A DNA stretch of 38,986 nt, from positions 1 to 38,986 of the forward strand of contig CAIUCY010000018.1 of assembly GCA_903897765.1 (NCBI GenBank). The letters run 5' to 3'. Of the stretch, positions 3,467-20,339 are shown piece by piece. Origin of the DNA: an uncultured Candidatus Marinamargulisbacteria bacterium (GTDB lineage: Bacteria; Margulisbacteria; Riflemargulisbacteria; GWF2-35-9). Made by a program: the position numbers and the translations under genes. Every line of letters starts with the position of its first letter. Position 1 is the first letter of the stretch. Under the pieces are notes generated by a model. It had not been told where the DNA came from. It saw only the letters and a list, made by a program, of their open reading frames with translations, and did no database searches.

Positions 3467-4312
3467 TTACATTTTCCCAAATTTGCTCCGAAGTCGTTGT
3501 ACACTTTTAGTTGTCGGAATGGCAAAGGCCTTACCTACTACAGGCCGGTTAATAACACGTCCAATCCGTTCAATACGTCTTTCTATTTCATGGTTGGAAA
3601 TAGGAACATCATGTGATCTTTTGTTTAGAGATTTATCGAGATGAGAGGCAAACTGGGGTTCGATATCCGGGGTATTTTCGTGTTCGAATATTTCATCTTT
3701 TTCAAAAGGAACCGATGATTTGTTCGGAAGTGGATTTTGTTGTGGGATGATATGGTTGAATAGGGGCTGATCCTCTTGTTCAAATTTTGAAGAGTGGCTA
3801 GAGCCAAGGAAGGCTTCATTGAAATCCGGTGATGATTTGGAGGCTCCTTCAATAATTTCATGGGTTTCAACGTTAAACAATAGGAGCTCTTCTTCAGCCG
3901 TTTCATCATCTTCATGCGGTGAACTGATCGGGCCGGTTTTCTTTTGGATCTGAACCTGTCCGACATCATCAAGAATTCGCCTAGAACCATCTGAGCCTGC
4001 TATTATTTCTTTCCGACGGCTGATCAAAGCGTTTTGTTCTCGGACTTGATTCAATCGAGTTTCTTCGCGTTGTTGGATCACGTTCAGTTCATTTTTTAGC
4101 CCATCTTTTTGAGAAAGGTACTCAACGGTATTGACTAAGTCACCGGATTCATTGATTGTTGCTTGCTGAGATGGGCCTGATTTGACAGAGGATGTCTTAG
4201 CATCAGGTACTAAAATCCCTTGAAGATCATTAAAGAGTGAATCAAGTTTGCCCATGAGTTCGGTCGATTGGGTATGATCCTGAGAAAGACTTGATGTAGC
4301 CGAGGAATTCAT
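3467..4312 (-). CDS. Hypothetical acidic, low-complexity protein with a basic C-terminus
   Basis: 281-aa ORF abutting the upstream gene with no gap. Ser/Glu/Asp/Gln-rich, no recognisable domain. Confidence 0.4.
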   Translation of the reverse strand: MNSSATSSLSQDHTQSTELMGKLDSLFNDLQGILVPDAKTSSVKSGPSQQATINESGDLVNTVEYLSQKDGLKNELNVIQQREETRLNQVREQNALISRRKEIIAGSDGSRRILDDVGQVQIQKKTGPISSPHEDDETAEEELLLFNVETHEIIEGASKSSPDFNEAFLGSSHSSKFEQEDQPLFNHIIPQQNPLPNKSSVPFEKDEIFEHENTPDIEPQFASHLDKSLNKRSHDVPISNHEIERRIERIGRVINRPVVGKAFAIPTTKSVQRLRSKFGKM

Positions 4313-4853: not shown

Positions 4854-5564
4854 ATGCAGTCCCTGTTTAGTCTTATTGATAATTTTTTCCAATATGTTTT
4901 TGGGCATCCTGATTCGCTTATTTTTTTTGTGCCTCTTTTATTGCTTTCATTTATTGTTGTGAATCGTTTTGGCGTCATTCCTAACAAGTTCCAAACCTTT
5001 GTAGAGGTTATCTTCGAATTTCTCGAGTCACAATTTAAGCCTCTTTTCAAGGAAGAGGCTCATTACAAGAAGTGGATGCCTTTTTTCCTTACTATATTTT
5101 CCTACATTCTCATTTTGAATATGGTCGGGTTGATCCCAAGGTTAACGGCGCCCACGTCCGATATTTGGCTAACGGGGTCAATGGCGATCATGATCTTTCT
5201 CATCAGTTTCTTTTTGGGGATCAAACACAATGGTCCGATTAAATATTTTATTTTATTAACGCCGAGTGGTATTCCAACCGTCATTCGAGTGATGATGTTC
5301 CCGATAGAGATCATTTCAATGTTTGCAAAACCGTTCTCATTGGCAGTTCGACTTTATGCGAATATGTTTGCGGGTCATACGATCGTTAGGACTATTTTAG
5401 GGCTAACGGAAATATTTCATAGCAAGCTTATTCTGCCTGTGGATCTATTGTTCGTAGTCATCCTTCTTGGGTTTGAGGTTTTTGTGGCGCTCATACAGGC
5501 GTTTATTTTTGCCTATCTATCGGCGATATATATTGCAGATAGTCTATATATGGGTGACCATTAA
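4854..5564 (+). CDS. atpB: F-type ATP synthase Fo subunit a
   Basis: Polytopic membrane protein with the LAVRLYANMFAGH motif (essential Arg). ATG at 4854 with a GGGGGAGG Shine-Dalgarno at 4841-4848. First gene of the atp operon. Confidence 0.9.
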   Translation: MQSLFSLIDNFFQYVFGHPDSLIFFVPLLLLSFIVVNRFGVIPNKFQTFVEVIFEFLESQFKPLFKEEAHYKKWMPFFLTIFSYILILNMVGLIPRLTAPTSDIWLTGSMAIMIFLISFFLGIKHNGPIKYFILLTPSGIPTVIRVMMFPIEIISMFAKPFSLAVRLYANMFAGHTIVRTILGLTEIFHSKLILPVDLLFVVILLGFEVFVALIQAFIFAYLSAIYIADSLYMGDH

Positions 5565-8397: not shown

Positions 8398-10615
<2,218 letters not shown>

Positions 10616-18267: not shown

Positions 18268-18834
18268 ATGTTGCTCATTTTGGGAATGCTCCTTGCCTAT
18301 GGGATCGCGTGTTTGCCTGGGTGGATGTATGCCCTTGAGAAGATCGAGGGGGGAAAGCCCTTAACTCGTTTTGCGCTGCCAGATGGAACGCGTATCCAGC
18401 AATATCTTGATTTCCCGCAGATCTGGTATGCCACTATTTTTGAAGCGATCAAAGTCGTGGTTTTCTTGGCCCTCTTTACGTCTCAAAATCCGTGGTTGTT
18501 TTTGGCCTTTTTATTAGGGGTTCTTGTACCCTATTGGCGTCCGATGCCGTTTCGAGAACTATCACTTTTTGTGTTTTTTTATTTATTGGCTACTCAGTTT
18601 TCCATTGGCATGCTCTTTGGGTTGGCGTATGTTGTGGCTACAGTGACCCGTCAACCATTCCAACCCTTTCTTGGGGTGGGGTTTTGTCTGATCGCAGGGC
18701 TGGTTCAATGGGTCTCAGGGGCTGATCTGCTTGCGGTGGGGTTAACCCTCATGATCCTTATTTTAGAACTGGCTCGGATAGGTGTCCCTTTGTTTTGGGT
18801 TAAAAGAAAGAAAACTCCCCTAACCCCTCTTTAG
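18268..18834 (+). CDS. Polytopic membrane protein of unknown function
   Basis: 188 aa with about 5 hydrophobic helices. No diagnostic motif. Confidence 0.45.
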   Translation: MLLILGMLLAYGIACLPGWMYALEKIEGGKPLTRFALPDGTRIQQYLDFPQIWYATIFEAIKVVVFLALFTSQNPWLFLAFLLGVLVPYWRPMPFRELSLFVFFYLLATQFSIGMLFGLAYVVATVTRQPFQPFLGVGFCLIAGLVQWVSGADLLAVGLTLMILILELARIGVPLFWVKRKKTPLTPL

Positions 18835-18845
18835 AAATAGAGGGG
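18824..18845 (+). terminator. Hairpin overlapping the stop codon of the upstream membrane-protein gene
   Basis: CCCCTCT (18824-18830) pairs with AGAGGGG (18839-18845). A second short GGGCA/TGCCC stem followed by TTTT lies just downstream. Confidence 0.4.
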
Positions 18846-18901
18846 CATTTGCTGCCCTTTTCGGTAAACACCTTTTAGGATACAATTAGTCAGCTTAATG
18901 T

Positions 18902-18978
18902 CGGGATGTAGCGCAGTCCGGTAGCGCACTTGTCTGGGGGGCAAGTGGCCGTGGGTTCAAATCCCGCCATCCCGACCA
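18902..18978 (+). tRNA. tRNA-Pro (anticodon GGG)
   Basis: Folded by hand into a 77-nt cloverleaf. Acceptor CGGGATG/CATCCCG, D arm GCGC/GCGC, anticodon stem CTTGT/GCAAG with loop CTGGGGG, T arm GTGGG-TTCAAAT-CCCGC, encoded CCA. Confidence 0.9.
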
Positions 18979-19019
18979 TTAAATAATGATCTCCCACGAA
19001 TCCTTGAAAAAATTTTGGT

Positions 19020-19688
19020 CTATTTTGGATTATCAAAAAGCGGACCAAAGAGCATCATTTTTGGTTTGATGAGTTTAATAAGAAGATTTTCTAAATGAAT
19101 CATAAATGTGCCAACTTTATGACTTTTCATTTCACTAACATGCTCAACGATTCCATTAATATTTGAGAAGAAATAATACTTATAATTTGACTGTTCATAT
19201 GAGTGAGATGAGCTTATATTTTTTGGCATATCTCGAAGGAAGAAGGAAAGGATATCTTTTTCTTGATCAGTGAGATTAGATTGAGGATTGTTTTTATTAA
19301 AGACTTCCAATATTTTTTTCTCTGGCCGAAGCTCATGGTTAGTAACTAGATCGTCACTGCTGCTCTCGTTTTTCAACCAAGAAGACCAGATTCTAACCTC
19401 TGTGGTTTCGATCCCTTCTCTTACAATTGGGTTATTTGTGGATTTATATAGTTCTCTAATATGGGTCTCGATGAAATTTCTTAGAATTTGTGGAAAATTA
19501 TTTCGAACACCACTAATAACGATACTTAAACTATTTATTCCATTCACGGTCTGCAAACGTAATTGACCGGCACATATAACCGTAGGGTATTTGTGCCCAT
19601 CGCTTATTATTTTATTCTTCATCAAATCCCCCAGAGTGGCAGTAGCATCTATATATAATTTATCGAGAGGATTTTCGGGATATTTCAA
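19020..19688 (-). CDS. Orphan hypothetical protein in a visibly AT-rich segment next to tRNA-Pro
   Basis: 222-aa ORF (TTG start per the track). Asn/Lys/Ile/Ser-rich composition unlike its neighbours. No recognised domain. Confidence 0.45.
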   Translation of the reverse strand: MKYPENPLDKLYIDATATLGDLMKNKIISDGHKYPTVICAGQLRLQTVNGINSLSIVISGVRNNFPQILRNFIETHIRELYKSTNNPIVREGIETTEVRIWSSWLKNESSSDDLVTNHELRPEKKILEVFNKNNPQSNLTDQEKDILSFFLRDMPKNISSSHSYEQSNYKYYFFSNINGIVEHVSEMKSHKVGTFMIHLENLLIKLIKPKMMLFGPLFDNPK

Positions 19689-19741
19689 TATTCAACAAAT
19701 AACAGAAACTTTAAATAAGAGAGATAAGTTGGGGCAGAGAA

Positions 19742-20044
19742 TTACTCCTCAGATCGACGTGTACTACAACAGCCCCCAACGATACGGATCTCTTTGAGAT
19801 TGAGGAGGGCGTCAGCTATTTTGGAATGAGCAGAGGATAAGATCCGCGATACGGTCGTTCGATGAACCCCCATCTGGGTCGCTACGGTGTCTTGTAGCTG
19901 GCCTTGTTGGTCACAAAGGCGAATCGCTTCAAATTCGTCGAGGGTCAGCGAAACGCCATCAAGGCGGCTCGAGCCTTTACACACCGGACGGAAAAGGCGT
20001 TCTTCATGGCTGCAACAGACAAAACGTTGTTTCTTAGGACGCAT
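19742..20044 (-). CDS. DUF134 (UPF0251) family putative DNA-binding protein with extra Cys pairs
   Basis: From the internal ATG: MRPKKQRFVCC...F.P, LTLDEFEAIRLCD, and an HTH-like MGVHRTTVSRIL, matching the DUF134 pattern. Start is 1 nt after the hgcB stop. The longer track ORF (to 20131) would overlap hgcB. Confidence 0.7.
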   Translation of the reverse strand: MRPKKQRFVCCSHEERLFRPVCKGSSRLDGVSLTLDEFEAIRLCDQQGQLQDTVATQMGVHRTTVSRILSSAHSKIADALLNLKEIRIVGGCCSTRRSEE

Positions 20045-20045
20045 G

Positions 20046-20336
20046 TTAGCAGCATCCGCCGCCTGAACAACCACACGTGGGCTCTGTTCCTTTGACCACG
20101 CCAAGTATAATGCCTGCAGCACAACCCACACCCTTTTTTACGTAAATTGCCTCTGCCACACAGTTGGTTTGGCAGGCACCACATTCCATGCAACGATCTA
20201 GGTCGAGTACGGTGGCTTTCTTTTCTTGGAGGGCAAACACATTATGAGGGCAAACCACAACACACATGCCGCAGCCGATACATTTATCGACATTCAGGGT
20301 TAGTGTTGAAACGTTTTTTAGATAAGTAGTTTGCAT
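20046..20336 (-). CDS. hgcB: Mercury methylation ferredoxin HgcB
   Basis: Two CX2CX2CX3C motifs (CIGCGMCVVVCP, CMECGACQTNC), a GVGCAA segment and a C-terminal GGGCC. Starts 3 nt downstream of the hgcA stop. Confidence 0.85.
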   Translation of the reverse strand: MQTTYLKNVSTLTLNVDKCIGCGMCVVVCPHNVFALQEKKATVLDLDRCMECGACQTNCVAEAIYVKKGVGCAAGIILGVVKGTEPTCGCSGGGCC

Positions 20337-20339
20337 AAT

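Follow-up and report, generated by a model that had tools for sequence, protein, structure and literature searches.

What does a 100-residue protein of the DUF134 (UPF0251) family do when its gene sits one nucleotide behind hgcB? The question is raised by the window analyzed here, a 38,986-bp stretch of DNA in which three minus-strand genes lie in tandem: hgcA (20340–21299; 319 aa; NCBIfam HgcA_corrinoid, 416.8 bits, cut-off 275), the ferredoxin gene hgcB (20046–20336; 96 aa with a C-terminal GGGCC; NCBIfam HgcB_ferredoxin, 122.5 bits, cut-off 99), and the DUF134 gene (19742–20044; Pfam PF02001, 66.2 bits, cut-off 27). The literature searched contains no published function for any protein of the family (PF02001, COG1342) and no publication that ties it to arsenic or to hgcAB. 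The gene bears on the regulation and native function of hgcAB, for which control has been characterized only in one Desulfovibrionaceae strain, where it is exerted by an ArsR-like repressor. A sequence-only reading of the window had left two roles open for the DUF134 protein, that of an additional HgcAB component that might deliver Hg(II) and that of a thiol-based metal-sensing regulator of the locus. The distribution of the family speaks against the former. The latter is now the best reading, and the protein is predicted to be an operator-binding repressor, because the hgcA promoter carries the operator of its clade, within the intergenic stretch that had been flagged earlier.

Layout and promoter of the hgc locus

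The tandem order and tight spacing described previously are confirmed by the ORF list and the sequence. The hgcA stop codon (TAA, 20340–20342) is followed by ATT and then by the ATG of hgcB at 20336, a gap of 3 nt, and the hgcB stop codon (TAA, 20046–20048) is followed by a single C and the ATG of DUF134 at 20044, a gap of 1 nt. The peptide motifs that had been quoted (RFVCCSHE, PVCKG, LTLDEFEAIRLCD, MGVHRTTVSRIL, IVGGCCSTRR, and the HgcB tail GGGCC) are likewise all present. Over the stretch from hgcB to the end of DUF134, neither an internal promoter nor a terminator was predicted, and in relatives the stop and start codons of this operon overlap or abut, both of which support the predicted tight operon of three genes. 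From this layout in the window and its relatives, we infer that hgcA, hgcB, and DUF134 are co-transcribed. A longer DUF134 ORF of 129 aa, with a GTG start at 20131, was dropped, as every homologue begins MRPKK. The sequence of the locus is present in DNA runs from freshwater and lake metagenomes.

The start of hgcA is the ATG at 21299 (MSIIKT..., MSIIKTSSTLSL...), and the N terminus counted from this position has the length found in relatives. A 350-aa hgcA ORF from an upstream ATG at 21392 was rejected: it is out of frame in an 84%-identical relative, L164, and it opens with codons that, read as reverse complement, form the start of a divergent HAD-phosphatase gene. The divergent genes, at 21379–23090, encode a HAD-type phosphatase (PF06888) and an Fe-ADH_2 (PF13685) protein, the latter from a family that includes glycerol-1-phosphate dehydrogenases. 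The two genes overlap by 4 nt, and the pair starts 79 nt from the hgcA start.

The best sigma-70-like site in a scan of 18800–21600 is the hgcA promoter, with a −35 hexamer TTGACA (21329–21334, minus strand) and a −10 hexamer TATTAT (21306–21311, minus strand) that together match 11 of 12 positions across a 17-nt spacer. This geometry is also seen in the relatives L001, L164, L004, and L166. Read along the minus strand, the region runs TTGACA (21334–21329), 17 nt, TATTAT (21311–21306), GCACAT, ATG, AGCATAA, and the hgcA ATG starts 7 nt past the −10 hexamer. As there is no space for a leader between the −10 hexamer and the ATG, the hgcA mRNA is predicted to be leaderless and probably is so.

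On its other side, the locus is bounded by a convergent tRNA-Pro(GGG) gene (18902–18978, plus strand), which also stands beside the locus in L164 and L165. In L165, acr3 lies between DUF134 and this tRNA gene, a synteny from which acr3 appears to have been lost secondarily in the window. The position that acr3 holds in relatives is taken in the window by an ORF of 222 aa (19020–19688, minus strand) with a GC content of 34%, compared with 44% for the window. This ORF matches no Pfam or NCBIfam family, has no homologues outside its own contigs, and is absent from the 84%-identical L164, where nothing occupies the position. It is an orphan insertion or non-coding filler and could, but need not, be a genuine fourth gene of the transcript. 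No gene for Acr3, ArsC, or any other ars protein was found downstream of DUF134 or anywhere else in the 39-kb window, which leaves hgcAB as the only recognizable cargo of the DUF134 regulator.

An ars-type clade of DUF134 proteins

The PF02001 match spans residues 2–92 of the 100 and places the protein in the DUF134 family, with a score below threshold for the NCBIfam equivalog PRK04217 (52.7, cut-off 115). The protein consists of a basic N-terminal arm (MRPKKQR), cysteines at positions 10, 11, and 22, an HTH at about residues 35–81 with the recognition helix HRTTVSR, and a C-terminal GGCC that contributes Cys92 and Cys93. The HTH-like core recognized from the sequence stands up well, as a DNA-binding-type HTH with conserved cysteines and a confidently predicted fold. 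The AlphaFold model shows a strand, three helices, and a strand, with pLDDT above 90 for residues 30–90; the N-terminal arm and cysteine region are disordered in this monomer model (N-terminal pLDDT below 50). Sigma-70 region 4 and the DeoR operator-binding domain are the best structural matches in the fold search, in which all matches had E values above 0.04 and covered the HTH only. Among solved structures, no DUF134 structure was found, and matches were at the level of the HTH. The protein has no Pfam match to the ArsR/SmtB winged-helix families HTH_5 and HTH_20 or to MerR, and the promoter spacer is 17 nt, not the 19–20 bp of the MerR type.

We define an ars-type clade by an N terminus of MRPKKxR, Cys11, Cys22, and a C-terminal GGCC. 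The window protein, whose gene is intact, carries all of these marks, which are kept at 116–120 of 120 relatives, and since it belongs to the clade alignment (A2), it carries every residue that is invariant there. Among the 120 best homologues, Cys11 is found in all 120, Cys22 in 116, Cys92 in 118, and Cys93 in 116. Most members have Cys17; Cys10 is found instead in 13 of the 120, including the window protein and P0001–P0008. The members linked to arsC and acr3 keep only Cys11, Cys92, and Cys93.

These counts do not bear out the idea that the terminal cysteine pairs are specific to hgc-linked copies: the C-terminal pair is present in 116–118 of 120 clade members whatever their context, an outcome that had been set out beforehand as speaking against the idea. 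The likeness of this tail to the GGGCC of HgcB had also been pointed out. Because the tail is kept in clade members regardless of context, ars-only operons among them, the likeness is best regarded as coincidental or convergent. GGCC is specific to the clade, being found in none of 120 proteins retrieved with a Clostridia-type DUF134 query (from L048), which have GGNY, GGHY, or GGSY, a different Cys-rich tail, and the N terminus MPRPRKCR.

The Clostridia-type clade without GGCC (L048 10765–12436 and P0121–P0240) has a tail that reads CCRRHNGxCxxKGCEKCxxCxxC, and the DUF134 gene of L048 adjoins one for an Mrp/NBP35-like P-loop ATPase. One metagenomic contig, L092, bears two DUF134 genes, an ars-type copy (5001–5306) and a generic-type copy (8468–8956) with a zinc-ribbon-like C-terminal extension, CxxC...CxxC. 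DUF134 may be a family of small HTH proteins with interchangeable cysteine sensor tails.

The genes for the five closest homologues of the window protein (69–93% identical) and for a sixth (62%) all lie directly after hgcB. At five of these six hgc-linked loci, HgcA is only 53–86% identical to that of the window, and the adjacency of hgcB and DUF134 is more than chance. The order is hgcA-hgcB-DUF134 in P0001 and P0002, hgcA-hgcB-DUF134-acr3 in P0003 and P0004, and hgcA-hgcB-DUF134-arsC-acr3 in P0005 and P0020. In all, there are seven distinct Margulisbacteria-type hgcA-hgcB-DUF134 loci, four of which continue with acr3 or arsC-acr3. On a neighbor-joining tree, ars-only operons interleave with the hgc-linked ones. 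The order is DUF134-arsC-acr3-arsD-arsA in P0007 and DUF134-arsP-trx-trx-dsbD in P0016.

Among the 80 nearest DUF134 loci in JGI metagenomes (52–63% identity), none contains hgcA. The gene directly downstream could be called in 73 of the 80 and is of ars type in 69 of those 73: an ArsP_1 permease gene in 55, LMW-phosphatase ArsC in 5, Acr3 in 4, an ArsM-like methyltransferase in 3, and an aquaglyceroporin (MIP) and ArsA in 1 each. ArsM-like (12), DsbD_2 (11), Thioredoxin_3 (5), Acr3 (4), and ArsC (3) genes recur in the second and third places after DUF134. With ars genes directly behind it, the clade holds the slot that ArsR has in classical ars operons.

The same neighborhood was approached from hgcA by scanning GTDB, at one genome per species, with an alignment of HgcA proteins. 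The best 80 of at least 590 confirmed loci (46–55% identity, many phyla) were probed with an HMM built from the 120 DUF134 relatives. A DUF134 gene directly follows hgcB at one of these best 80 loci of at least 590, L004 from a Marinamargulisbacteria MAG, and a copy is found within 6 kb at two more of the best 80. In this set of 80, DUF134 is thus not a general partner of hgcAB, and its co-occurrence with hgcAB across methylators is not that of an obligate third HgcAB subunit.

The arsenic neighborhood of hgcAB is already known (PMC7438021, PMC11984097), and it is reproduced among the best 80 of the 590 or more loci. In this set, acr3 and/or arsC flank hgcAB in about 36 loci, hgcA is immediately preceded by an ArsR-family gene at 22 of 72 loci and by arsC at 16 of 72, and hgcB is immediately followed by acr3 at 15 of 62. 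DUF134 is a rare, lineage-restricted substitute in this neighborhood. Across L004–L083, arsC is often just upstream and acr3 just downstream of hgcAB, and several MAGs labeled Bacteroidales have the order arsC-hgcA-hgcB-acr3. Other HgcA proteins from Margulisbacteria and Saganbacteria (L015, L020, L033) cluster with the DUF134-linked ones on the neighbor-joining tree. At those three loci, there is no adjacent regulator and no operator, which confines the DUF134 linkage to a sub-lineage.

A promoter palindrome and the recognition helix

A common DNA element was found in the 110 nt upstream of the metagenomic DUF134 genes. In almost every one of these regions, a sigma-70 promoter (TTGACA-17-TATAAT-like) is directly followed by the palindrome TTATG[A/C]ACATATGT[T/G]CATAA, which in its clade form, TTATG[A/C]AC-N4-GT[T/G]CATAA, overlaps or closely follows the −10 element. 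At two mismatches or fewer, the palindrome occurs in 68 of 78 upstream regions, compared with 0.035 expected from shuffles, and the exact 16-mer core is present in 38 loci. Its center lies a median of 25 nt from the start codon of DUF134, a distance that can accommodate a Shine-Dalgarno leader.

Six of the remaining upstream regions have the same half-sites around a center of CATA or TATA. These regions, in which CATA or TATA stands in place of ATAT, belong to one sub-clade (L121, L135, L147, L149, L150, and L161), and in its proteins residue 66 is Thr, not Ser (…TFTRIL). This may be a second case of protein–DNA covariation, between operator center and residue 66, in a single clade only.

The fourth base of the half-site tracks residue 63 of the recognition helix perfectly in raw counts over 80 loci, in which about three independent events are evident. 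ATGCAC occurs with Ser or Thr63 in 30 of 30 cases and ATGAAC with Pro63 in 50 of 50. By tree order, L117/L142/L127 and L135 are nested in the Pro/A clade and have switched both characters together; these two nested switches and a deep split make up the roughly three events. These operons encode no further regulator. Binding of DUF134 to the palindrome is strongly suggested by this pattern.

As elsewhere in the ars-type clade, the operon of the window protein has a cognate operator at its promoter. The 20-bp near-palindrome TTATGCACATATGAGCATAA (21290–21309, minus strand), the predicted binding site of a DUF134 dimer, overlaps the −10 hexamer, about the last three bases of which form its start. 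It also covers the site where transcription is predicted to begin and the start codon of hgcA, and the ATG itself (21297–21299) is the center of the palindrome (CATATG). When the 38,986-bp window is searched with the pattern TATGMACATATGTKCATA at up to three mismatches, the sole match is 21291–21308, with one mismatch, where 0.04 matches are expected. L001/L002, L164, and L166 have the identical arrangement of promoter, operator, and central ATG, and L004 has the same arrangement with a degenerate right half-site. In the window and in L001, L164, L166, and L004, the first three residues of HgcA (M-S-I) are encoded by an operator half-site.

An operator identical to that of the window (…ATGAGCATAA) is found in L168, an ars-only operon of the Margulis type, with a leader and a Shine-Dalgarno sequence between operator and DUF134. 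The asymmetric form ATGAGC is kept in at least five Margulis-type loci, one of them an intact ars-only operon. In L042, from a Bacillota MAG without DUF134, a palindrome TATGAGCATATATGCATA with two mismatches (4231–4248) starts an arsR-acr3-arsD cluster beside hgcAB. Palindrome-like matches in L042 and L065 occur at the chance rate over about 0.9 Mb, and that in L042 is probably due to chance, although it could be convergence.

Proposed regulation and comparison with known systems

Our preferred reading, which we consider likely to be correct, is that DUF134 is a small dimeric HTH repressor from an ars-operon clade that has captured hgcAB and that probably responds to As(III) or MAs(III). The protein would probably switch hgcAB on and off rather than aid in mercury handling. 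The usual role of the clade would be autoregulation of ars-type operons (arsP, arsC, acr3, arsM, thioredoxin/DsbD). Without effector, the protein is expected to sit on the operator, where it would shut out RNA polymerase and prevent the leaderless hgcA-hgcB-DUF134 transcript from being initiated. Cys11 of the basic arm at the N terminus and the vicinal pair Cys92-Cys93 of the tail, with help from Cys10 and Cys22, would then bind a thiophilic metalloid, and this binding would lift arm and tail off the DNA and de-repress the operon. ArsR proteins coordinate As(III) through three thiolates, which often include two neighboring cysteines of a terminal extension. For DUF134, the surrounding genes make As(III) or methyl-As(III) the likeliest ligand, with Sb(III) and Hg(II) as further possibilities.

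The simplest history, on present evidence, is that an ars operon under DUF134 control in the Margulisbacteria-type lineage took up hgcAB between its operator and its regulator gene. Later loss of acr3 in the sublineage of the window would have left hgcAB as the sole known cargo of the regulator. The larger claim, that the clade is a new metalloid-sensing repressor family unrelated to ArsR and that hgcAB in these freshwater bacteria has become arsenic-inducible by a second independent route, could in our judgment equally well prove right or wrong.

A repressor that binds this operator might answer to a signal other than arsenic, such as thiol or redox stress, Fe-S, structural Zn, Hg(II), or Cd(II). 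Many clade operons include thioredoxin and DsbD/CcdA genes, what ArsP_1-family permeases transport has mostly not been tested, and the four or five conserved cysteines exceed what an As(III) site needs. Another DUF134 clade has a different Cys-rich tail and lies beside an Mrp-like Fe-S ATPase, and no ars gene is left in the window. However, we judge a non-arsenic signal to be unlikely, if still a serious competitor, as clear arsenic genes (ArsC, Acr3, ArsA/ArsD, ArsM-like) directly follow the regulator at many loci and the three-cysteine members are the very ones linked to arsC and acr3.

It is also conceivable that the adjacency is incidental, with DUF134 a remnant of a decayed ars operon and the palindrome inactive or the site of another factor. 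The state of the window, in which acr3 is gone, an orphan ORF is inserted, and the operator has one symmetry-breaking mismatch, fits such decay, but the asymmetric operator is the one kept in five or more Margulis-type loci, the DUF134 gene is intact with all clade-invariant residues, no other regulator is found in these operons, and helix residue 63 tracks the operator base. We therefore hold this explanation to be very improbable.

Least probable of all, and largely refuted by distribution, is a third methylation component in which DUF134 serves as a thiol carrier that hands Hg(II) to HgcAB through its CC pairs: the 1-nt gap to hgcB, the vicinal cysteines like those of the HgcB tail, and the retention of DUF134 with hgcAB after acr3 loss in the window, P0001, and P0002 are outweighed by its place after hgcB in only one of the best 80 hgcA loci (of at least 590), by the lack of hgcA at all 80 nearest metagenomic relatives, by a CC tail that is kept in ars-only operons, and by an HTH fold whose recognition helix covaries with a DNA palindrome.

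If the arsenic-responsive repressor reading is correct, a second, non-homologous regulator derived from ars operons and found in a different phylum would provide independent support for the link between arsenic and hgcAB. DUF134/UPF0251 gains a first testable function, an operator, and a candidate ligand site, and both the operator and the specificity-determining residue of a new repressor family would be readable from sequence. The unit of promoter, operator, and leaderless ATG is compact, and if the arsenic response is confirmed, protein and operator together would be a potential metalloid biosensor part.

Among solved structures, the N-terminal HTH of the Bacillus subtilis DeoR/SorC family (PDB 7bhy, 8r7y) is the best match to DUF134 (E value of 1.2e-6). 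The two share the motif ...Q..IA..L.(I/V)SRPTVSR.L..A, and DeoR also binds palindromic operators. DeoR, however, has a large sugar-phosphate effector domain, whereas the HTH of DUF134 has just short Cys-bearing arms. Generic DUF134 proteins (Clostridia type, near Mrp/NBP35-like ATPases) resemble the window protein in their Pfam match and in the succession of N-terminal basic arm, β strand, HTH, β strand, and GG, but they start with MPRPRKCR and have GG(N/H/S)Y in place of GGCC (0 of 120). At the one such locus considered, L048, the neighbors are a TetR-like gene, a membrane protein, and the Mrp-like ATPase, unlike the ars context of the window's clade.

As(III) sensors of the ArsR/SmtB family use three cysteines, in some cases with a vicinal pair, as in R773 ArsR, AfArsR (Cys95/96/102), and CgArsR (Cys15/16/55). 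DUF134 similarly has three invariant cysteines, a vicinal pair among them, which lie beyond the HTH in terminal extensions, and its ars-type relatives are encoded by the first gene of the ars operon, with an operator at the promoter and predicted autoregulation. DUF134, however, shares neither sequence nor fold homology with ArsR/SmtB, and its cysteines, a candidate metal site, are split between the N-terminal basic arm and the GGCC tail.

The closest functional parallel is Pseudodesulfovibrio mercurii ND132, in which an arsenic-responsive ArsR-like repressor controls hgcAB (bioRxiv 10.1101/2022.10.17.512643); arsR-like genes precede hgcA in many methylators (bioRxiv 10.1101/2022.10.17.512643; PMC7438021; PMC11984097). 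Both systems have a small regulator co-transcribed with hgcAB (as we infer here), linkage to acr3 and arsC, and a repression that arsenic relieves, or in our case is predicted to relieve. They differ in the regulator itself, as DUF134 has an HTH of the sigma-70 region 4/DeoR type and no ArsR/SmtB winged helix, and in its place, after hgcB rather than before hgcA. They also differ in that the DUF134 system has a defined palindromic operator containing the hgcA start codon and is found in the Margulisbacteria-type lineage only. Compared with ArsR–hgcAB, the system in the window is a non-homologous variant with another gene order and a defined operator.
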